Assembly (NCBI GenBank): GCA_965204375.1
Contig: OZ241986.1
Coordinates: 3,776,001-3,840,000 of the forward strand
Length of the DNA: 64,000 nt
Direction: 5' to 3'
Source of the DNA: Candidatus Latescibacterota bacterium
GTDB lineage: Bacteria; Latescibacterota; UBA2968
Shown here: piece after piece, positions 3,551-63,111 of the stretch
Numbering within the stretch: position 1 is the stretch's first letter
How the letters are laid out: each line of letters begins with the position of its first letter
Position numbers and translations under genes: made by a program
Notes under the pieces: generated by a model
The model's input: only the letters and a program-made list of their open reading frames with translations
What the model was told of the DNA's origin: nothing
Databases searched by the model: none

Positions 3551-4570
3551 TCAAAGAGCCTTCAAAACATTCTTCAAAATACGCTCTTCCCTTTGAGAAA
3601 TATCATCTAACAAGGTGATAATCTTCAGAATACGATCCACATCCCACGTTCTCTTAATCTCCCCTAACGCTCGCAATTTAAGCATCATCAGATGAACCTG
3701 ATGCGCCTTGTGCTCAACCTCTTTGTACGCCTGATGAAACTGGTCTGACGGACGCAAATACCCGCGATCCTCCAGATAAGCAAGCCTATCCAACATACAA
3801 CGCTTGTGCTCCCAAAGCGTGAATAAATGCCGCCGATCCCACAACCGAGGATGGACAAACAAATGCGTAAAGTAATCTCGCAAAAGCTTATACGTCGCCA
3901 TCCCAAAGACGCCTTCAACTGGCTTGCACAACGTCCGGTAGTGGAGAGACGGATTCTCAGAATGGATGTAGGCTCGCAACTGGTCAATGACAGCATCAAT
4001 ATCAAACTCATAGATACCGTCCTCATCATACTCAAAAAGAGTCACCAGGTACGATCTGGGTTTCTCGGGATCAATCCAGCGAAACGCCGCTTCAAATTCT
4101 GAATATGCAACCCTTGAAACAGCGTAACTCCGCGCTCGATTGAATCCCAGAGTCTCAAGCGTTTCTGTATCGTCATCGTATCCGAATACCATAATAGCAT
4201 GCGGATGATGAATTTTCTCATAAAATGATGTATGCGGCAAGAAATACTCATCGGCAGTTAACTGGACATAGAAGCCCTCATCAATTTGATCGCGAATAAA
4301 CGGCACAATCTGGTTATATACTCTGACGATTGATCGCCTTGGAACAGTGTAGATAGACAGCCACGGCGGGGAGTACTGGCCTTGAAAATAGAAGTTGAAT
4401 CGGATGTTATGTTTGTTCTCATGCAACAGGTCAACGGCGAATAGCTGTATGTAATTGCAGAAGAATCAGGGAATATAATCATCCTGAAGTGACATAATCG
4501 AAAGCCGATAGCCATGTCGAGGATAGCCGTGTATGGGTGGGGATACCTGGATGGGAAGTGTTTTTTTCAT
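3551..4570 (-). pseudogene. BtrH-like (papain/NlpC-fold) protein with one in-frame TGA at codon 35
   Basis: The frame from ATG 4570 reads MKKTLPIQVSPPIHGY...DDYIP*FFCNYIQL and continues in frame into the 291-aa ORF. DEYFLP..HHPHAIMVFGYD resembles the BtrH_N motif. Stop at 4466-4468. Confidence 0.65.
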
Positions 4571-4622
4571 AATATGTCTCAAAAGCTATGCCATCTGAGT
4601 GCGAGCGAAAAATCTATTCTGT

Positions 4623-4889
4623 CTATCCGGCAGCAGGTACCTTCTGTCGTGCTGTGCGAACATAATCAGCCATGGTCTGTACGCTATCAAACAGTTCCAC
4701 GCGCAACTCTTCATCTGGTACTTCAATGTCAAATTCCTCTTCCAGACCCACAATGATCTCAATAGTCGCCATTGAATTAAGCCCCAGACCACCGCCAAAA
4801 AGCGCGTCGTCATCGTCAATTTCTTCTGCATCAACTTCAAGAGACAACGTGCGAATGATCACCTGTTTGACCCGATGTTCAATAGACAT
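4623..4889 (-). CDS. Acyl carrier protein
   Basis: 88 aa, acidic; GLGLNSMATIEIIVGLEEEFDIEVPDEEL with phosphopantetheine Ser39; strong RBS AGGAGGG. Confidence 0.9.
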   Translation of the reverse strand: MSIEHRVKQVIIRTLSLEVDAEEIDDDDALFGGGLGLNSMATIEIIVGLEEEFDIEVPDEELRVELFDSVQTMADYVRTARQKVPAAG

Positions 4890-4897
4890 AACCCCTC

Positions 4898-6799
4898 CTA
4901 TGCGATAGTTGATGTATCATCCTTTGAAAAATATTGAATCACAGTTTCCACAAGACGCTGTTGACCCGTCTCTGAAAGAATCTCAATCGCGGGCACACAA
5001 AAATTATCTTCTAATTTTTTTAGGTGACAATTAATTTGAGATTGTGCCATCTTTTTGGGCGTGATCATACTGCGCCCATAAGCTGTTCGGATATGTTTTT
5101 CGTGGTCTCCCATCGCGAGTAAGATAGTCGGTGCTTTGCACACGGCACGTATGCCATCAATTGTATCTCGGATGTATTCTTCTGCATCAATGCTGTTGAC
5201 CACCAGAATACAGGCATCGGGTTTTACCCCCAGTAAAAACGCCAGTGAAGACAAGCAATGTGTGCTGTGTTCCTGGACATGATAGGGAATGGTCCCCGAC
5301 TGAGAGCCTGTCAGGATAATATCGGGCTGTGTGCGCTGGCAAATCTCCCGAATTTTGTAATCCAGATACGGTATGTAATGTTGAAATGGCAGTTTGAGCG
5401 GCGAAGCGTAGCCCATTGGAAAAGCAGCATCCATGCCAAATAGCCGAGAATGGTGCTCTGTGCCAATCTGCCCGACTTTATAGCCCTTTTTGATGAGTCT
5501 GCGCCTGAGCGCAAGTTGCAAAGTGAACTTGCCCTGCTGAGAACTCGTGCCCATCACAGAAAGCACTGGCACATCTACAGGCGGGAGCGTGTTGAAATTT
5601 TGAATGGCCTGTGTGATTTCTTCTCTATGAATGTGAGGATAGGCAAGGCGCAGTCCCTTCTTATCCGCTGTATCATACAGATCGCCGTAAACGGTTGGAT
5701 CAAGTGCCTGAAAACTGAACACATGACATTCCTCATCAAGAGCCAATTGCACATATTCTCTGAGCAAATCGCGCTTGCGGATGCGAGATAGTTGATCCAC
5801 ATAGCCGAGAATGAGCGTATCTGCATCTGCCATTGTGTGCCGGATATTCGGGCTAATCCGCAAATTTACCTGAGATTCGCCAATCACCTTACTCGCATCT
5901 TTGCCCACTATCCCCTTTCCAATGGGGTCGGCGACACCGACAATCTCAAACGCGAGCAAATCGCGATAGCGCACCAGACTGTGCATCTCTTTGTTATACG
6001 GATACAACACGGCTTTCTTGATATAGGCATAGTCCTCTTGAAAATCTTTTTGGTGTGACTGAAGACCAGATTTGGACTTATTTTGACCTTGAGATATTTC
6101 GTTTAATGCTTTTTCTTTTAATAATAATCGAATATCTTGAACCGAACATTTTGGATGCTGTTCCAACAGGTGTGCGATAATACCCGTGATATGGGGTGCG
6201 GCAAAGCTGTTTCCTCCGGTCATAATATGTTTGCCGTTTAACCAGCACACGCGCTGTTCATCCCCTCGCGCTACACATTCGATGCGCTGATCTTCGCGGT
6301 AATAAAATCCATCTGCTTCATAAATCGCACCACCTGTCACACCAATCACTTCGGGAAATACCGCAGGATAACTCTCACGTCCGTCATTACTCTCAGCAAC
6401 TACGAGAATTACGCCAGCATCAATTGCTTTGCGGCACACCTTTTGAAGAGATTTCTTAAACGTCACATCCGTCGTGCCCAGGCTCAAATTCACCACATCC
6501 ATCTTGTTGTCAATGCACCACTGAATCGCCGCAATGAGTGCCCGTCCATCTGCCATCAAAGATGCATCAAAAATCCGCACGCTATAAAGTGCTGCATTAG
6601 GGGCCTTCTTGCGAATAATTCCAGCACACGCCGTACCATGCCCTGCACAGTCGGCGTGGTTATCTAAAAATACAATCCCACATTCTTCACCAACCTGAAT
6701 ATGAATACCACCCGAAATTTCACCTACATCAGGATGCGGAGCGTCTATGCCGCTATCGACAATGGCAAGCCGGATTTGAGAGGGATTTTCTTTAAACAT
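4898..6799 (-). CDS. S8 subtilase fused to a DUF1611 / TIGR04066-like P-loop domain
   Basis: Triad motifs AIVDSG, GHGTACAG, GNSFAAPHITG; C-terminal VMGTSSQQGKFT and GSQSG; no signal peptide. Confidence 0.82.
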   Translation of the reverse strand: MFKENPSQIRLAIVDSGIDAPHPDVGEISGGIHIQVGEECGIVFLDNHADCAGHGTACAGIIRKKAPNAALYSVRIFDASLMADGRALIAAIQWCIDNKMDVVNLSLGTTDVTFKKSLQKVCRKAIDAGVILVVAESNDGRESYPAVFPEVIGVTGGAIYEADGFYYREDQRIECVARGDEQRVCWLNGKHIMTGGNSFAAPHITGIIAHLLEQHPKCSVQDIRLLLKEKALNEISQGQNKSKSGLQSHQKDFQEDYAYIKKAVLYPYNKEMHSLVRYRDLLAFEIVGVADPIGKGIVGKDASKVIGESQVNLRISPNIRHTMADADTLILGYVDQLSRIRKRDLLREYVQLALDEECHVFSFQALDPTVYGDLYDTADKKGLRLAYPHIHREEITQAIQNFNTLPPVDVPVLSVMGTSSQQGKFTLQLALRRRLIKKGYKVGQIGTEHHSRLFGMDAAFPMGYASPLKLPFQHYIPYLDYKIREICQRTQPDIILTGSQSGTIPYHVQEHSTHCLSSLAFLLGVKPDACILVVNSIDAEEYIRDTIDGIRAVCKAPTILLAMGDHEKHIRTAYGRSMITPKKMAQSQINCHLKKLEDNFCVPAIEILSETGQQRLVETVIQYFSKDDTSTIA

Positions 6800-55389: not shown

Positions 55390-55598
55390 TGTCTGAATCA
55401 GGATTTTCAGGATTTTAGGATGGACAGGATACCCCCTGCCACATCACACTAATGTCTGAATCAGAATTTTCAGGATTTTAGGATGAACAGGATACCCCCC
55501 GCCACACCCCAACAAAAATGCTAAACCCATACGGCAGGATGAAAGGATGAGCAAGATGCCCCCCAACACAACCCACCAAAACTGCCAAACACATCCTG
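55390..55598 (+). repeat. Two full and one degenerate copy of the TGTCTGAATCAGGAT(TTTCAGGAT) element
   Basis: Copies begin at 55390 and 55453; degenerate copy at about 55535-55598. Confidence 0.88.
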
Positions 55599-56002: not shown

Positions 56003-56082
56003 TGTCTGAATCAGGATTTTCAGGATTTTAGGATGGGCAGGATACCCCGCCACACCCCACCAAAACTGCCAAAACCATCCTG
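56003..56082 (+). repeat. TGTCTGAATCAGGAT element copy
   Basis: Direct repeat of 55390 and 56572, including the CCCCGCCACACCCC loop region. Confidence 0.88.
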
Positions 56083-56134
56083 ATGATGTATGCGTAACGT
56101 CAATAAATAAAAAGGGATAAATTAAACTTGTATC

Positions 56135-56156
56135 AATATGCTAAATTTAGCATATT
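56135..56156. promoter_or_regulatory. Perfect 22-bp palindromic operator upstream of the HTH antitoxin
   Basis: AATATGCTAAATTTAGCATATT. Confidence 0.7.
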
Positions 56157-56201
56157 ATCTATTATGAACACGAAGCCACACAAACCATAGGAAAACAGAA
56201 C

Positions 56202-56552
56202 ATGAACAAAAAAGCAAACTACACAGTCGGGTCGGGCAACGTATTCAAAGACCTGGGATTTGACCGCCCAGAAGAAGAATTGGCAAAATCAGATCTGGCA
56301 ATTCAAATTACTAAAATCATTGAGCAAAAAGGTTGGACGCAAAAAAAAGCCGCAGGTGTTCTTGGCATCGACCAACCCAAAGTATCCGCGCTCAAGAATG
56401 GAAGATTAGGCGGATTTTCTATCGAGCGTCTATTGTCCTTCTTGCGGGCATTGGACCGGGACATCGACATCGTCGTACGTCCGAAAACCGAGGATGTAGC
56501 GCACATCCAGGTCGCAGAAGCAATCAATCGTCCCAGGTATGTCACGAGGTAA
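56202..56552 (+). CDS. XRE-family HTH antitoxin (HigA-like), orphan
   Basis: GSGNVFKDLG..K..L...WTQKKAA.VLGIDQPKVS.L..G.L.GFSIERL. Confidence 0.88.
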   Translation: MNKKANYTVGSGNVFKDLGFDRPEEELAKSDLAIQITKIIEQKGWTQKKAAGVLGIDQPKVSALKNGRLGGFSIERLLSFLRALDRDIDIVVRPKTEDVAHIQVAEAINRPRYVTR

Positions 56553-56571: not shown

Positions 56572-56656
56572 TGTCTGAATCAGGATTTTCAGGATTTTAG
56601 GATGAACAGGATACCCCCCGCCACACCCCGCCAAGCGTGCCAAACCTTCGTCCTGA
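56572..56656 (+). repeat. TGTCTGAATCAGGAT element copy; left arm bounding the defence-like operon
   Basis: Direct repeat of 56003; inverted relative to 63039-63079. Confidence 0.85.
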
Positions 56657-56753: not shown

Positions 56754-57113
56754 TCAACTTTGACATTTGCATAATTTTGCTATTCGGCTACTCAAAGGCA
56801 TCTCCGATAGCTCCAGATTAGCCAGTGTGGAGAGATACTCGTCAGCAAAAGGCGTGTTAAAAGGCTCCAGAGCAACTGCTACCAACGATAATGTCATATC
56901 ATAGGAAAACTTTTCACCAGACACAAATTCTGCCATTAAACTCTGTATATAGCTCCGCAATTCTACCTCGGATAAATTCCCACTCCAATATGCATCTTGA
57001 AGGCGCCTGCACTCTTTGGTCCGTACAAGAATATATCGCATTGCTTTGGGTGGCATTTCATAGCCGATAGAAAAAATGAAGTCATCAGACTTTATTTTTT
57101 GAAGTACACTCAT
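56754..57113 (-). CDS. Hypothetical protein
   Basis: 119 aa from MSVLQK with GGAG RBS; followed by a hairpin and T-run at about 56671-56705. Confidence 0.6.
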   Translation of the reverse strand: MSVLQKIKSDDFIFSIGYEMPPKAMRYILVRTKECRRLQDAYWSGNLSEVELRSYIQSLMAEFVSGEKFSYDMTLSLVAVALEPFNTPFADEYLSTLANLELSEMPLSSRIAKLCKCQS

Positions 57114-57173
57114 CGGAATACTCCGCAATTTGACCAATTCACTTCTGTAGATCAAACACAAAACAGATTATGT

Positions 57174-57869
57174 TTACCTGTTCCCCAGTGCAATGTCACG
57201 AATCATCTGTGGATTGCATCTGACTTTTTCAAAAACCTGCAATCCTTCACGACACACGGTCTCACACAATTTTTTGAACAATAATCCTTTGAGGTTATAA
57301 TTGTTGGCTCCCTCAATTTCATTTGCTAACTCAGTTCCTGCTAAAACGCCGTGGACATTACGGAAATCAGGAATCAAACACCTATAGCTTTTGCCAGGCA
57401 GAAAAATCTGAGTAACTGTATCTGGAACCTGAAAAGGGAGTTGTAGAGCTTGAACGTATTCTTTGCCTAATAAAAAGAATACGAGTTTATAGTTCGCGAT
57501 TAATGTCTCTACCCGTTCATGGATTTGAAGGCTATCGCTACGCGCTAAAGGCTTCCTTTCCTTCGGCCCTGTGAATGTAACATTGTAAGGAACAATAACA
57601 TCGCATTCACGAAGCAGTCCGTACCCGGCTGAAATAATGTGCAAATCGACAACTGCCTGTCCATAAATCTCCCGAATTTGTTCTAATCCTTCCATCAAGT
57701 ATCGATGTTGTTGACCTGTGTACATTTCTGCGGCAGGTGCTTTGTAAGCACTCAGTTCTTCCGTTCGCCGGCGAAGGCGTTCACACGAACTGAAATCTTC
57801 CTGCTGGAGTTGGTTTGCAGGTTTACATTTTTTGTCGCCAGTGCAAGAGCCAATTACCAATATCTTCAC
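57174..57869 (-). CDS. DUF6884 / YaaA-like protein
   Basis: ILVIGSCTGDK, PAAEMYTG, IISAGYGLL, PYNVTF. Confidence 0.65.
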   Translation of the reverse strand: MKILVIGSCTGDKKCKPANQLQQEDFSSCERLRRRTEELSAYKAPAAEMYTGQQHRYLMEGLEQIREIYGQAVVDLHIISAGYGLLRECDVIVPYNVTFTGPKERKPLARSDSLQIHERVETLIANYKLVFFLLGKEYVQALQLPFQVPDTVTQIFLPGKSYRCLIPDFRNVHGVLAGTELANEIEGANNYNLKGLLFKKLCETVCREGLQVFEKVRCNPQMIRDIALGNR

Positions 57870-58180: not shown

Positions 58181-58858
58181 CTATTCCTCTGTCACATTAT
58201 CCAATTCCTGTAACAGCTCCCCATCAATCAAATCAATCAATTCCTGCACCGTCTCAACAGTGAGTTGCGACGACTGAAAACCATGAGCAATCGCATTTCG
58301 CGTTTGCTGTATATGTTTGAGAGCATGATATGTTTCTCGCGCAATGATCCCTTCAAAGGTCATTTGCTTAAGCAAATAATCGGGCGTTGCAGTCTCTCCC
58401 TCTATTCCCTCTTTCACCGCCAGGACCCTCAAAGTCGCTTCCACCAAAGACCACCCCATGAGAAATGCAGCCTCTAAATGCCCGTTTTCCACAAATAGAG
58501 CCACTTCTACAATTTTTGAACGAATTTCTTCGACAGTAAATAGCGAAGCTCCATTCACAAAAAATGAATTTTCTGGCCCTAATAAAAACAACTCAAATTT
58601 CCAGTCAGCCTCATTTCTGACAACTTTTGCCAATTCATTTACTTGAGGAAAATCAGAGACCTGTCCACGCACTCTTACTTCGACCACAATATGCTCATCG
58701 CCTTTATGTGCAATCAAATCTGGCCGAAATGTCTGCAAAAAATCAGGCAATTGATCGCCCTGGGGTTCAATCAACACATCATAGCCCTTGTCGCGATATA
58801 CTTGCCCAACATTCTGAACGCGCAGACTTTCGTTTTCACGAGCAGTTAAGTCAGCCAT
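58181..58858 (-). CDS. REase-fold (AHJR-like) domain fused to HEPN-like domain
   Basis: KGYDV..EP, RPDLIAHKGDEHIVVEVR; C-terminal EAAFLMGWSLVEA and RNAIAH (RX4H). Confidence 0.72.
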   Translation of the reverse strand: MADLTARENESLRVQNVGQVYRDKGYDVLIEPQGDQLPDFLQTFRPDLIAHKGDEHIVVEVRVRGQVSDFPQVNELAKVVRNEADWKFELFLLGPENSFFVNGASLFTVEEIRSKIVEVALFVENGHLEAAFLMGWSLVEATLRVLAVKEGIEGETATPDYLLKQMTFEGIIARETYHALKHIQQTRNAIAHGFQSSQLTVETVQELIDLIDGELLQELDNVTEE

Positions 58859-59330
58859 TGAACACCTCTTCCTTTATTCGGCGTTTCATATTTTGGAAAG
58901 ATCGATATTCTTCAGGCTTAACATACCGCCAGGACTGTGGAACTGAAAAATTCGAGAACCGATTTCTCAGCTTGCTCAAATCAGCCGGATTTTCATATTC
59001 CCAAACGTCCGTAACTTGCAGAGCATAAGCAATTTCACGCCCTTCATAATAGGTATCAAAACTCTGCTTATCGACGCCAGCAATTTCCGATACCTCGTTC
59101 CACACTTCCTGGGGCGAACCCTGCCACACATGTCCCACGCGGAAGCCGCCGCGAAGTTGCTTGACTGGGCTTGACACGTAAATAAATGCATCACAGCCCT
59201 CTATACCGGAAGCTATACGCCTTCGCAACTCGGCTTTTTTGCGACCTGCAAAAATCAAGTCTGCATAATAAGGTTTCAGAGACAAAAGTAAAGGTTGTGT
59301 TGTTTTGTTCATGGCTGATTCGTATTCCAC
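58851..59330 (-). CDS. ASCH domain protein
   Basis: LLSLKPYYADLIFAGRKKAELRR, YVSSPVK, PQSWRY. Confidence 0.85.
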   Translation of the reverse strand: MEYESAMNKTTQPLLLSLKPYYADLIFAGRKKAELRRRIASGIEGCDAFIYVSSPVKQLRGGFRVGHVWQGSPQEVWNEVSEIAGVDKQSFDTYYEGREIAYALQVTDVWEYENPADLSKLRNRFSNFSVPQSWRYVKPEEYRSFQNMKRRIKEEVFNG

Positions 59331-61855
59331 TAAATATCTAAAAAACCGTGGCGCCCAGCACGCAAAAGGGTTTCCCGCGCACGCTCCGCATTCTCGCGTA
59401 TGCTGCTCTCATCCTCGCTGTCCAATCCCGCCTTCAGAATCGACTTCGCTTTGTCTGCGTCAATGTAGATGGTATCGTTCTGGTCAATAGCATCCGTCAT
59501 TTTTGCGAAGCATTCAACGACTTTTGCAGTGTGGCTTTCAAGCATTTCGTCCAGTATGTCCAACACGATTGAGATACTCCCGCTATCTATCTGGCTTACA
59601 TCGAGAATTTTGGTGTAAGCATCCAATCGCCAATCCGGGTCAAGACATTCAGCTTCGAGCCATAAGGCGATCTTTTGCAGTTCTTCTGGTTCCCCAACTT
59701 CAAAACGCCAATCAAAGAAAGTGGTTATACGGTCTATCAAGCGTTGTGTCAGATGCTCATCACTATTTTTCACAAACCATCCGACATAACTGGATAAGGT
59801 CGCCCGTCGTTGCGGGTCGTTCTTGGTCTTCTCGTAGAATTTTTCCAGCAGACTATCTTTTCCCCGGAGTGGATAGACTTCCCAAAAATAATAAGTAAAA
59901 AGATGTTCGCCCAGCGTATCGACTATTTCACCATTCTCAAATTTGGTCAAGTGGTCAAGTGCAAGTGCAAAATCATCTCTCAGAATTTCAAAGGTCGGCT
60001 TGAAAGGTCGATTGAAGTGCAAGAAACTTCCAAATGCTTCTATCCATACAGGTAGATTATCTTGAGGGAAAAAGACCGCTTTGTGTTCGACTGCCCATGC
60101 TTGATTTAGGCCCAAAAGTTGATCGTAATACATGCCCAATAGCGCACGTTCCGGCATCGTAAGGGGATACTCCGCATCGTCCTTAAAACGTTCTTCAAGT
60201 ATTGATGTGACTTCTGGTACCTTGTCCGTATCATCGTGCCTACACACCCATAAACCGAACTTCACAAGGTCTTGCAAAGCGCGACTTCGGGTGCTGTTGA
60301 TCGCCTCGGTAATTGGATCGTTACGATTCAGTAAGGTTGGCTCATCAAGATCTAATTGCCTGTCAAATTGTGTGCATAGCAATCTGAGAATATTTGCCAG
60401 TGATTCCCGTGCAGTGAAAGGGACATTCATATTCTTTTTCATACACTCACCAATAAAATCTCCCACTGTTCGCCGCGAACTCCCCCAGTCTGGATATTCT
60501 CGCGACGCATCGCTTTCTGCGTTTTCCGCAATGTCGGGATGCGATAGCACCCACTCACAGAATTCAAACCATAGATCAACTTGCTCATAATGTTGCTCTT
60601 TTACATGCTCTTGAATCGCCTGGACAATTGCTCTGATGTAAATGGGACGCTCTATCCGCTCGCGGTTCTCCATCCAAAATGTCAACCGTTCCTCATCGGG
60701 AATGATCGTATCTTTGAATACTGTTTGAAATGCACCTACCAATGATCCAATATTGATTTCAACCAGCCAGTCGTCCTTGTCAATTTGTTCTTCTTGCCAT
60801 TCGTTGATGTATGCGAGCAGTTCCTCGTCGCCAAGCTTTGCCAGATCTTCGGGCGAACTTGGGCTACGGTAAGAGACCATCCCGCTCTGAAATAGTGAAT
60901 AGTCTTCATCGGAAAGGGGCTTTTCCTCGGCGTTTTCCAATTCTTGGAAATAAGTTTGATATTCTCCAGTCAGTAAGCGTGCGAAGGGGCGAAGTTGCTT
61001 TCTGTGAAAATTTCGCTGGTATTCCTGGAATCCCTCCTCAGTAAATTGGTCGCCCATTCTTTCGCGGGAGTCTTCTTTTGGAGGGCCGATCAGAATAGCT
61101 TCAAATATCGTTGTTCGTTCTTCTTCATTGAGCAGACGTGTGCCAAAATGCTCGCAAGCCGTGTGGATCATTTGTTGAAATTCGTAGCCATCCATCCATT
61201 TGTCATAGTCTTTATATTCGAGAATAAATTCACGAATCCATGGTAGGGTCTGTTCATTTGGGTTCAGTGCATAGAGGTATTGGCGCAACCGCTTGAATAC
61301 CTTCCATCGCTGATTTCGCAGTGCTTCGTCAAGGGCTTCAACAGACTCTGGTGAGTTTTCGTAAACCTTCTCGCAGGCGAAGGTCAGTGTATGTATCAAT
61401 GTTTCTTTGGTATTCGGGCGTCTCCTATCAGATTGATTTAGCCGAGGACACCAGATTTCCGAGGAGTCTTCATCTCCTTCCTGATTAAGGTCTTCTTGAT
61501 GCTTGCTCAGGCGAATCATACTTGCCGTAGCATTGATCAGAATATTGGCAACCTGATAAGGCGCAATATCAGCCAATGGCCTAACACCCAGCTCTAAAAT
61601 CTGCTGGTATTCCCATTGATCGAAACGAGGCGATGGTTCGAGAGATGTTGTCATATTTTCCCATATTCCAAGACTTGAAGACGGATCAAGGGATATTTCC
61701 CCCAGATTCTCCAATCGACTTGCTTGCTTCTCCTCAGCTTTTGGATCTGGGAGAAAACCGACCAATTTTGTTAAGAACGCAGAGGTGAACTCCGCCAATT
61801 CTCTGTCAAACAGAAACGGTTTCTTAAGTAGTTCAATGATCTTGATATATCTCAT
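59330..61855 (-). CDS. Large alpha-helical repeat-like protein, unknown function
   Basis: 841 aa, acidic, Trp/Leu-rich helical character, no NTPase motif seen; overlaps both neighbours. Confidence 0.75.
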   Translation of the reverse strand: MRYIKIIELLKKPFLFDRELAEFTSAFLTKLVGFLPDPKAEEKQASRLENLGEISLDPSSSLGIWENMTTSLEPSPRFDQWEYQQILELGVRPLADIAPYQVANILINATASMIRLSKHQEDLNQEGDEDSSEIWCPRLNQSDRRRPNTKETLIHTLTFACEKVYENSPESVEALDEALRNQRWKVFKRLRQYLYALNPNEQTLPWIREFILEYKDYDKWMDGYEFQQMIHTACEHFGTRLLNEEERTTIFEAILIGPPKEDSRERMGDQFTEEGFQEYQRNFHRKQLRPFARLLTGEYQTYFQELENAEEKPLSDEDYSLFQSGMVSYRSPSSPEDLAKLGDEELLAYINEWQEEQIDKDDWLVEINIGSLVGAFQTVFKDTIIPDEERLTFWMENRERIERPIYIRAIVQAIQEHVKEQHYEQVDLWFEFCEWVLSHPDIAENAESDASREYPDWGSSRRTVGDFIGECMKKNMNVPFTARESLANILRLLCTQFDRQLDLDEPTLLNRNDPITEAINSTRSRALQDLVKFGLWVCRHDDTDKVPEVTSILEERFKDDAEYPLTMPERALLGMYYDQLLGLNQAWAVEHKAVFFPQDNLPVWIEAFGSFLHFNRPFKPTFEILRDDFALALDHLTKFENGEIVDTLGEHLFTYYFWEVYPLRGKDSLLEKFYEKTKNDPQRRATLSSYVGWFVKNSDEHLTQRLIDRITTFFDWRFEVGEPEELQKIALWLEAECLDPDWRLDAYTKILDVSQIDSGSISIVLDILDEMLESHTAKVVECFAKMTDAIDQNDTIYIDADKAKSILKAGLDSEDESSIRENAERARETLLRAGRHGFLDI

Positions 61856-62931
61856 CTGACATGCTCCACAAAAGATAAAATATTGGAAGAGAGTCTATTG
61901 ATCACTTCAACCGAATCGGCCTTCAGGACGACATCCATAATGCCTTCCAGAATTCGCGGGTTTGACGTTTCGGGAAGGTTCTCTAATATCTCAAGAACCC
62001 TCTCTGGCATAGTTTCATAAACGCGAACAAGATAATTGACCGGCGGCCAGAAAGGTGTCCGATAGCCGCCATCCGGTGTTTCTTCTATGTCCGGAGGATT
62101 GTCGAAATAACCATTAGATCTCAAAGGTTCGAGCCATATATCATCTTTAGCATGATCAAAGAAGTAGTCATAGTTGGGACCTCTGGGCTCAATAAGTCTC
62201 AAAGCACGTTCAACTTCAAAGGGTGTGACTTCATTGCCTCGTCTCAGGATAGCCTGCAATTCCGTAAGATCTTCGGTCGTGATCGGTCTGGTAGGATCAA
62301 TCACTGGCCGTTCCAAATCCTCGATTTTAAGTTCTGGTTCAAACGCCTTTATATATTTATCAAGACTGGAAAAATGTGCAATAAACCGGCGTCGCGCACA
62401 GGCTTCGCGGAAATCCCCATCGCCACTGACAACAGCGATATTTGCTTTGTGTTCCTTGTGATAATGTTCCAAAGCACTGAGGATGAAAGCATCAGGAAAT
62501 TCTTTGGGTTTCTTCGAAAATGGCGGTTCTTTTTTAAAATACCAATCAACTACATTATCCAAATCTCCGACGAGGGGCAGTTTCTCTACAATAAAATGTT
62601 CCTTAAACGTCTCCCATTGGCAAATCAGTTCATCATAGCACTTTGATTGCAATTCCTCTTCAGTAGGGAGTTCAATAAGAGACAAAGAATTAATCGGATG
62701 TGCCTCGTTTGCCTTAATCAAATTATTGGCTGCTTTGATAGCTTGTTCGTTGAATTTGCGCAGCAACTCCCGCTCCATCATTTCCGGGATTAGCAGACGA
62801 ATTCCACCTTTGACAAAAGTATCCAGCAATTGAGTAAATGCTTGTGTATCGAATCGATGCCCTTGTTGGACAAAAACTTGGGTGTCAATATAGAGAGATG
62901 TAGGAATGTGTCTCAGGTTCATCTCAGTCAT
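61852..62931 (-). CDS. PIN domain (DUF4935-like) protein with start of a helical domain
   Basis: LYIDTQVF, PPF..K.KEFPDAFIL, VVSGDGDF acidic motifs; C-terminal YFF..WLEPL..GYF.NPP. Confidence 0.8.
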   Translation of the reverse strand: MTEMNLRHIPTSLYIDTQVFVQQGHRFDTQAFTQLLDTFVKGGIRLLIPEMMERELLRKFNEQAIKAANNLIKANEAHPINSLSLIELPTEEELQSKCYDELICQWETFKEHFIVEKLPLVGDLDNVVDWYFKKEPPFSKKPKEFPDAFILSALEHYHKEHKANIAVVSGDGDFREACARRRFIAHFSSLDKYIKAFEPELKIEDLERPVIDPTRPITTEDLTELQAILRRGNEVTPFEVERALRLIEPRGPNYDYFFDHAKDDIWLEPLRSNGYFDNPPDIEETPDGGYRTPFWPPVNYLVRVYETMPERVLEILENLPETSNPRILEGIMDVVLKADSVEVINRLSSNILSFVEHVR

Positions 62932-63009: not shown

Positions 63010-63079
63010 CCACATCCCGCCAAACCCACCAAACCCTTATCCTGTTCATCTTCTCATCCTGCCCATCCTGATTCAGACA
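63010..63079 (-). repeat. Inverted (right-arm) copy of the TGTCTGAATCAGGAT element
   Basis: The reverse complement of 63039-63079 matches 56572-56612 at 34 of 41 positions by my count. Confidence 0.8.
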
Positions 63080-63111
63080 GTTTTTGATGTAAACGCTTCT
63101 TTCAGTATGGT

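Follow-up and report, generated by a model that had tools for sequence, protein, structure and literature searches.

The stretch of DNA analysed here, which as a whole is called the window, comprises 64,000 nucleotides (nt) of a Candidatus Latescibacterota bacterium (assembly GCA_965204375.1, contig OZ241986.1, positions 3,776,001-3,840,000 of the forward strand). It contains a block of four open reading frames (ORFs) on the minus strand: g1 (61852-62931, 359 amino acids (aa)), g2 (59330-61855, 841 aa), g3 (58851-59330, 159 aa, GTG start) and g4 (58181-58858, 225 aa). The first of these encodes a PIN_12 protein, probably the effector half of a sensor protein whose predicted all-helical remainder is encoded by g2; g3 codes for an ASCH protein, and g4 for an AHJR-like restriction endonuclease (REase) domain joined to a HEPN domain. 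An earlier note on this DNA had taken the four genes for one candidate new anti-phage operon. Our analysis makes it likely that g1 and g2 form a split, PIN-armed, Dsr1-like sensor protein and that g3 and g4 are leftovers of two other gene pairs, with three modules sharing a decaying island.

The genes are tightly packed. The stop codon of g1 and the start codon of g2 overlap in an ATGA (61852-61855), with g2 in the -1 frame; the GTG of g3 and the TAG stop codon of g2 have one base in common, and g3 and g4 overlap by 8 nt (ATGGCTGA). Relatives of g3 start at an ATG corresponding to position 59312. This is probably the translation start of g3 as well, and with it a 17-nt spacer follows g2. A listing of the ORFs and a reading of the junctions agreed with the earlier note on the coordinates, the strand and the overlapping or near-overlapping stops and starts. 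Its domain calls (PIN, ASCH, a REase with EVR for ExK, a HEPN domain with RNAIAH, and a helical g2 lacking an NTPase family), its location of the locus in a defence island and its naming of YhcG and GxxExxY as neighbours were likewise correct. The stretch is also contained, across the g1/g2 junction and with 0 differences, in Logan contigs of sequencing runs X1 (one sample) and X2/X3 (another sample of the same study), which are possibly the source samples of the assembly. The contig of a relative in run X4 also spans the g1/g2 junction without gaps.

In a Pfam scan, g1 matched PIN_12 (PF16289) with an E-value of 4e-24 over the full model, which places the nuclease domain at residues 13-174 (about 62410-62895, minus strand). 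The residues D16, E53, E55, D147 and D171 are conserved in at least 97% of 35 aligned sequences, and the acidic site of the PIN domain appears to be intact. Profile match and conserved acidic residues together identify g1 as a member of PIN_12/DUF4935, a family placed in the VapC group of PIN-like nucleases and described as of unknown function (PMC5499597). The PIN domain is likely to be the effector. It is followed by a linker and then by a stretch of about 120 residues (residues ~239-359, about 61855-62217, minus strand), which was assigned to the sensor by the Dsr1 model and by hhalign, as described below.

The product of g2 matched no Pfam family, and no nucleoside triphosphatase (NTPase) family was found by the Pfam scan in g1 or g2. 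Its AlphaFold2 (AF2) model is an all-alpha solenoid (predicted local distance difference test (pLDDT) 81.8, predicted template modelling score (pTM) 0.53), for which structure searches returned only generic solenoid matches. A search of the ESM Atlas gave only unnamed clusters, apart from a weak pointer to DUF4020 (score 0.92, 10% of members), and a plasmid collection yielded just two weak Haloferax matches with 24% identity. The PADLOC model for Dsr1, defence-associated sirtuin 1 (PDLC04166), in turn, matched g2 with an E-value of 3.2e-23, residues 72-727 corresponding to positions 498-1110 of the 1227 positions of the model. The same model matched the tail of g1 (E 5.8e-4, residues 239-336 to model positions 308-405), collinear with the match in g2, and it matched fused relatives at E 1e-22 to 3e-23. 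We surveyed 168 genomes of the phylum Latescibacterota, 21 of which, including the source genome itself (G000), belong to the genus of the window; the Dsr1 model found matches in 44 of the 168 and in none of 14 control genomes.

One genome of the same phylum, G023, encodes a genuine Dsr1 as a 308-aa SIR2_2 gene (E 1.7e-20) followed by a 945-aa sensor gene. When the profile of the g2 family was aligned to this SIR2_2-linked sensor, hhalign reported a match with 92% probability (E 6.6e-7) over 683 columns. This match begins inside the tail of g1, and therefore the cut between g1 and g2 lies about 120 residues inside the sensor and not at the boundary between effector and sensor. The proposal that the helical protein is a sensor was thus upheld by its homology to the Dsr1 sensor. 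The earlier note did not recognise the combination as a named system; g1 and g2, however, match the PADLOC Dsr1 model and belong to a Dsr1-like family. A second Dsr1-like gene was found elsewhere in the source genome (G000:C1:5983550-5985496, open frame of 1166 aa), matching positions 124-345 and 550-784 of the Dsr1 model. It is probably a conventional SIR2-type Dsr1, since the match at 124-345 falls in the model region (5-302) that lies on the SIR2_2 gene in G023.

A search of a protein collection with g2 returned 1057 relatives at E <= 0.001 among 8000 scored candidates. Many of them, spread over many phyla, are about 1195 aa long and carry PIN_12 at the N-terminus. Fused PIN relatives include WP_090540382.1, WP_148896793.1 and WP_305621500.1. 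Residues 6-357 of g1 align to residues 1-353 of one such fused protein, P0080, with 58% identity, and residues 5-841 of g2 align to its residues 360-1194 with 60% identity; the two lengths (359 + 841 aa) compare with 1195 aa in the single chain. As judged from these alignments, g1 and g2 are the collinear halves of one single-chain Dsr1-like protein. Among the 120 best cluster representatives, 31 begin at the start residue of g2 (MR[YH][SI]KIIELL...), 29 are fused to PIN, 25 to another N-terminal domain, 24 consist of the sensor only (~970 aa), and 11 are of other kinds.

We then considered 38 genome loci (39 copies) containing the N-terminal part of g2. Eight were PIN-fused, about 6 were fused to another domain, 19 were sensor-only, and 6 were split at the g1/g2 junction: L001, L003, L004 and L005 (Latescibacterota), L022 (Verrucomicrobiaceae) and L024 (a cyanobacterium). 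The ATGA overlap is present at the same residue in L001, L003, L004, L005 and L022, and analysis of the reading frames placed the split there in L024 too. In L004, the same split is combined with a different effector gene (357 aa, weak match to pP_pnuc_1). When compared with their split relatives, the ratio of nonsynonymous to synonymous substitution rates (dN/dS) was 0.20-0.30 for g1 and 0.21-0.25 for g2. The same split has been retained among relatives, and purifying selection acts on g1 as well as on g2.

Two technical accounts of the junction were discarded. A sequencing error was ruled out by the ATGA junction in relatives and by the contigs with 0 differences, and programmed -1 frameshifting was rejected as no slippery heptamer was seen by eye and g2 has its own ATG, at the same residue, in the window and in L001, L003, L004, L005 and L022.

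The family has other two-gene forms. Most of the sensor-only loci (16 of 19) have, upstream of the ~968-aa sensor gene and overlapping with it, a gene of about 212 aa (listed are L007, L016-L021, L023, L028-L030, L032, L033, L035 and L036); this is the commonest genomic form of this sensor family. The N-terminus of the ~212-aa protein (M.LN.EQQRVYDWL..LPVF...) resembles, by eye only, that of fused forms of about 1180 aa, and the ~212-aa gene with its sensor would represent a second recurrent cut point. No Pfam family was detected in the ~212-aa protein (L037 copy scanned), and the fused forms show just weak matches to pP_pnuc_1.

The two halves do not always share the same degree of divergence. 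While the parts of P0070 and P0080 that match g1 and g2 are about equally diverged, g1 is 87% identical to the N-terminal part of the fused proteins P0046 and P0056, and g2 just 69% to their sensor part. A FastTree phylogeny of the sensor part intermingles split forms with PIN-fused, other-effector and sensor-only ones, and at least 13 changes on well-supported branches are needed to account for the split label. The interleaved architectures and the uneven identities of g1 and g2 fit repeated recombination at or near the junction. The synonymous divergence (dS) amounts to about 0.7 in g2 and about 0.45 in g1, compared to 0.23-0.33 in g3 and g4, and the flanking DNA is 92-98% identical to that of relatives, compared to 78-82% for the g1-g2 block. 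Because dS and DNA identity differ from those of the flanks, the g1-g2 pair has its own history, apart from its surroundings. Tentatively, the ATGA cut might be more than a tolerated break and serve as a working exchange point, at which an effector, an adaptor of ~128 residues and a sensor body, all portable, are re-paired by recombination, bringing an effector module together with sensor alleles that diverge fast. The different dS values of g1 and g2 hint at this as well; we regard this extension of the split-sensor reading as possible, if rather doubtful.

With g1 and g2 read as a split sensor protein, g3 and g4 have to be accounted for. The ASCH match of g3 was below the Pfam cut-off (E 0.007), while a profile built from its relatives matched the solved chains of ZmASCH (5GUS/5GUQ) with an E-value of 2.5e-15, and PADLOC scored g3 as PDC-M11B (PDLC04425, E 3.4e-32). 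In seven other loci (L045-L049 from other genera, L050 and L052 from the same genus), a GNAT protein of about 670 aa is encoded directly before the g3 relative. The GNAT proteins of five of these seven loci were scanned, and all scored as PDC-M11A. In several of the seven loci, the GNAT gene itself comes after a type IIG restriction-modification (R-M) gene. A Mutator-family transposase interrupts PDC-M11A in L052 (G090; 4352-5527).

At our locus, PADLOC detected no PDC-M11A among nine proteins of the window, and the PDC-M11A of genome G078 used as query found nothing in the source genome, which is 96% complete. PDC-M11 is incomplete here because the A gene was found neither in the window nor in its own genome. 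The DNA homology between the window and L050 stops at position 59315, three bases before the ATG of g3, and therefore g1 and g2 sit exactly where PDC-M11A sits in G078. By these comparisons, g3 appears to be the orphan of a PDC-M11-type pair, (PIN)-GNAT-EVE plus ASCH, and not a part of the Dsr1-like module. A role of such operons as a toxin-antitoxin or defence module was predicted by Bell, Wolf & Koonin (2020, PMC7641849).

The N-terminal domain of g4 (residues 6-116) matched AHJR-like (PF18743) with an E-value of 1.2e-23. E10 and D47 are invariant in its relatives; the place of ExK is taken by E60-V-R62, for which relatives have AVK, KVT, EVG or QVK. The REase activity of g4 is uncertain because this last catalytic motif is EVR here and variable in relatives. 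The HEPN domain covers approximately residues 109-223, and R187 and H192 of its motif R187-N-A-I-A-H192 are invariant in 14 of 14 aligned relatives, with the Pfam HEPN models staying below their cut-offs. The AF2 model of g4 (pLDDT 81.8) had as best Foldseek matches the HEPN protein 2hsb (target template modelling score (TMt) 0.76, root mean square deviation 2.2, weak E-value of 7e-3) and archaeal Hjc chains, also with weak E-values. No nucleotidyltransferase (MNT) family was detected by the Pfam scan in the nine neighbouring proteins.

The g4 family is narrow, with 100 clusters, most of them 80-94% identical. In 16 distinct g4 loci, a RusA-like gene (PF05866, E 1e-12 for the copy in L004) lies directly upstream in 6, a fused remnant of it in 1, and an ASCH gene directly upstream in 4; the order ASCH-RusA-g4 was found in two of the six RusA loci (L004 and L052). 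The RusA-like genes overlap the g4 relatives that follow them (L004 11094-11507, L005 10680-11084, L010 10659-11069, L052 6605-7018, L068 5866-6336 and L069 4628-5074). This pairing of a RusA-like gene with an AHJR-like-HEPN gene, which recurs across several genera and brings two resolvase-type folds together with a HEPN RNase, is undescribed. From these neighbourhoods, g4 appears to be a separate, lineage-restricted gene that here lacks its usual RusA-like neighbour.

It is conceivable that in this genus g3 and g4 function together as a separate pair, for example with the ASCH protein restraining or guiding the HEPN RNase, which would be compatible with our reading of g1 and g2. The 8-nt overlap of start and stop speaks for such a pair, as do the seven of seven g3-carrying genomes of the genus that have g4 adjacent or one gene away and the purifying selection on both genes even though their usual partners are missing. 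Furthermore, ASCH proteins act on RNA: ZmASCH is a single-stranded RNA RNase (PMC5615036), and ASCH proteins have been reported as erasers of N4-acetylcytidine (ac4C) in tRNA (preprint 10.64898/2026.02.27.708502). However, at least 7 genomes of the genus have g4 but no g3, all nine genomes outside the genus with a g3 match have no g4 beside it, and the recurrent neighbours of the two genes differ, being PDC-M11A for g3 and the RusA-like gene for g4. We therefore consider a functional g3-g4 pair unlikely and prefer to see both genes as remnants of two different pairs.

The distribution of the genes bears on the question of one system or several. Matches to g2 were found in 25 of the 168 genomes, to g4 in 25 and to g3 in 16. 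Within the genus, g2, g3 and g4 are adjacent in four genomes (G000, G088, G085 and G073), g2 and g4 occur without g3 in three (G083, G072 and G075), g3 and g4 without g2 nearby in three (G078, G074 and G090), g2 alone in one (G089), g4 or its remnants alone in five (G076, G077, G081, G082 and G084), and none of the three in five (G079, G080, G086, G087 and G091). Among the 147 other genomes of the phylum, no two of them were adjacent. At 42 genome loci with a g2 relative, g4 adjoins in 6 and g3 in 3, all from Latescibacterota; outside this phylum, neither g3 nor g4 was found beside a g2 relative in any of 28 loci with at least 2 kb of downstream DNA.

According to the earlier note, the four genes would be a single new system in which the helical protein senses the phage, the ASCH protein reads modified nucleic acid, and the PIN, REase and HEPN domains are switched on. 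The close packing, the same four-gene order in the four genomes of the genus and the purifying selection on all four genes fit this proposal. Against it stand the restriction of the set to four genomes of one genus, the separate occurrence of its parts in that same genus and the place of g1 and g2 being held by PDC-M11A in G078. In addition, g4 of G088 is broken by a 385-aa transposase-like gene, with g1-g3 intact beside it. The ORF in question (L001 11210-12367) may be TnpB-like. The four genes are not one system; they are three separate modules in one probably co-transcribed block, and we give the single-system proposal very little credence. Nothing in our analysis shows that the ASCH protein triggers the nucleases, and the partner of g3, a GNAT gene (PDC-M11A), was not found here. 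Among the findings that the earlier note had named as speaking against it are a match to a described system and a lack of co-occurrence elsewhere; the first applies to g1 and g2, which match a described Dsr1-like family, and the second in part, as the four genes occur together in four genomes only. Functional interplay of g3 or g4 with g1 and g2 may nevertheless exist in this genus.

The surroundings of the block are those of a defence island. From about 55500 to the end of the window, the G+C content drops from ~0.54 to 0.42-0.47. Past the window end, the remainder of YhcG is followed in the source genome by a fragment of hsdS interrupted by an IS4-type transposase, two genes of unknown function, hsdM, hsdR and an AAA_14 ATPase. 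The hsdS gene of this upstream type I R-M operon (hsdR, hsdM, YhcG) and the IS4-type DDE transposase that cuts it are found at 1217-1891 and 2301-3659 of L044, the locus of the same genome just past the window end. Of 42 related loci, 11 to 13 have a type I R-M operon upstream on the same strand. A scan for promoters and terminators did not give results above chance (19 versus 15.9 and 9 versus 7.9 expected from shuffled sequence). The island is decaying: hsdS is cut by an insertion sequence (IS), the partners of g3 and g4 are missing, and a toxin gene is reduced to 27 codons. This remnant, at 56107-56187, precedes an orphan, antitoxin-like HTH_37 gene (56202-56552, plus strand), which in the relatives L003 and L010 is preceded by an overlapping toxin gene of 133-138 aa.

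Considering this decay, g1 and g2 could be the pieces of a broken, non-functional PIN-sensor gene, all the more so as, compared with the fused forms, the junction takes a stop codon plus a 1-nt shift. We judge this to be very improbable. The clean ATGA junction is kept in relatives that are 85% down to 49% identical and belong to three phyla, both halves have open frames with dN/dS values of 0.2-0.3, and the acidic residues of the PIN domain are intact. Moreover, multi-gene forms are normal in this family, as seen by the ~212-aa gene before the sensor in most sensor-only loci. The split of g1 and g2 is therefore better read as a conserved, natural form of the protein.

Further small elements lie around the block. 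Downstream of g4, a DUF6884/DpdC-like protein (57174-57869, minus strand; also a weak PDC-M57A match) is encoded next to a 135-aa protein without family (56754-57161, minus strand). The pair recurs in L005, the 135-aa gene also occurs in L010 and L013, and together they are possibly another small module. The gene modules of the island are separated by a dispersed intergenic repeat, whose core measures about 42 nt (TGTCTGAATCAGGATTTTCAGGATTTTAGGATG...), with direct copies at 55390-55464, 55453-55527, 55517-55591, 56003-56077 and 56572-56646 and an inverted copy at 63038-63079. The copies at 56572 and 63038, inverted with respect to each other, flank the block from g6 to g1. The source genome has at least 53 copies of the repeat, and many run contigs stop at it (loose ends at 63037-63086).

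Taken together, the module of g1 and g2, the only complete one of the three, would encode in two genes what is otherwise a single-chain defence protein with a sensor of the Dsr1/Avs7 type. Dsr1 and Avs7 have homologous sensors, for which the major capsid protein of phages is the trigger (Lee et al. 2026, PMC12803255, PMC13581612). Sensors of this type occur without a STAND NTPase and beside diverse effectors, including NADases, nucleases and kinases, and split proteins are mentioned in the methods of the same work (PMC12803255, PMC13581612). For EcDsr1, activation by the major capsid protein and protection against phage have been shown (PMC12803255), and NAD depletion by Dsr1 was described by Garb et al. 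(preprint 10.1101/2021.12.14.472415). By analogy, we propose that g1 and g2 are made by translational coupling at the ATGA and would reassemble through the interrupted helical solenoid. As its homology to Dsr1 and Avs7 suggests, the sensor would bind a structural protein of the phage, the major capsid protein being the likeliest candidate. Binding of the trigger would free the PIN domain, which is predicted to cut RNA and thereby stop the infection, probably at the cost of the cell (abortive infection). The second module would be g3, the ASCH gene that remains of a PDC-M11 pair, and the third g4, an AHJR-like-HEPN gene that seems to have lost its usual RusA-like neighbour.

That g1 and g2 are not immune genes at all, and instead form a PIN RNase with a helical scaffold for housekeeping RNA processing or a plain toxin-antitoxin pair, is hardly tenable: it can draw on the unassigned function of PIN_12/DUF4935 (PMC5499597), and it conflicts with the patchy distribution (g2 in 25 of 168 genomes), the spread of the family over many phyla, the exchange of effectors on the same sensor, the homology of the sensor to Dsr1 and the adjoining type I R-M and other defence genes.

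Several observations weigh against the interpretation of g1 and g2 as a Dsr1-like defence protein beside two unrelated remnants. The identity to the genuine Dsr1 sensor is just 19%, and because of this low value the trigger could be something other than the capsid protein. When the g2 model was used in structure searches, the matches were only generic HEAT/ARM alpha-solenoids (Foldseek template modelling scores of 0.16-0.34; VIA Z-scores of at most 12.7, in the range of unrelated helical repeats), and Avs4 bound to portal protein, with a Z-score of 10.3, lies inside that same range. The profile of the g2 family had 0 matches at E <= 1 among PDB sequences. The sequencing runs listed as containing the stretch include no RNA run. 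Finally, all four genes are tightly packed, under purifying selection and together in four genomes of the genus. Even so, we hold the split PIN-armed sensor, accompanied by two leftover genes, to be the probable reading.

If so, the Dsr1/Avs7 sensor family, which is among the few families of bacterial receptors with a known phage trigger, gains a member that is armed with a nuclease and naturally made of two pieces. With a cut within the repeat array of its sensor, the pair would offer a natural test of sensor assembly, of the passing of the signal to the effector and of the exchange of effector modules between alleles. The locus also calls for caution, as three unrelated and partly decayed modules, tightly packed within a defence island, came to resemble one new four-gene system.

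Among known systems, the closest to g1 and g2 is Dsr1. Homology between the helical sensor and the Dsr1 model extends, with the tail of g1 included, over about 800 positions of the model, and in both cases an N-terminal effector is followed by the sensor, without NTPase, in a defence island. In contrast to Dsr1, which has a SIR2 NADase in a single chain, g1 carries PIN_12 and no SIR2 family at E <= 0.1, and the protein consists of two polypeptides cut about 120 residues inside a sensor that is only ~19% identical to a genuine one; a capsid trigger would apply here by homology only. The split SIR2-sensor Dsr1 of G023 is similar in being an overlapping gene pair with the sensor encoded apart, and indicates that split forms are natural and recurrent, but its cut (308 + 945 aa) is located at the effector/sensor boundary, whereas g1 and g2 have a PIN effector and are cut within the sensor. 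Avs7 has a sensor homologous to that of Dsr1, joined to many effectors including nucleases (Lee et al. 2026); it differs in its STAND NTPase, for which g1 and g2 have no counterpart, and the link of g1 and g2 to Avs7 runs through the Dsr1 model only. The NTPase-less proteins with an Avs7/Dsr1 sensor domain described in the same work are the group into which g1 and g2 fit, with a sensor of the shared family, an effector and no NTPase. The term 'PIN' is absent from the main text of both versions of that work (PMC12803255, PMC13581612), whose Supplementary Table 8 may list PIN-type members, and in the literature collection searched no paper contains both 'Dsr1' and 'PIN domain'.

For the remaining genes, g3 is like PDC-M11 in scoring as PDC-M11B and in having relatives that come after PDC-M11A-type GNAT proteins, and unlike it in that the A component was found neither in the window nor in the source genome. 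With HEPN RNases such as HEPN-MNT and Csx1/Csm6, g4 shares the Rx4H motif and a HEPN-like four-helix domain; it differs from them in having no MNT or CARF partner in the Pfam scan and a RusA-like gene as its recurrent neighbour. Its N-terminal domain matches AHJR/Hjc as do the archaeal Hjc-type resolvases, with EVR in place of ExK. What appears to be new at this locus is the PIN effector on a Dsr1-like sensor together with a conserved cut inside that sensor, in a kind of system that is itself known.

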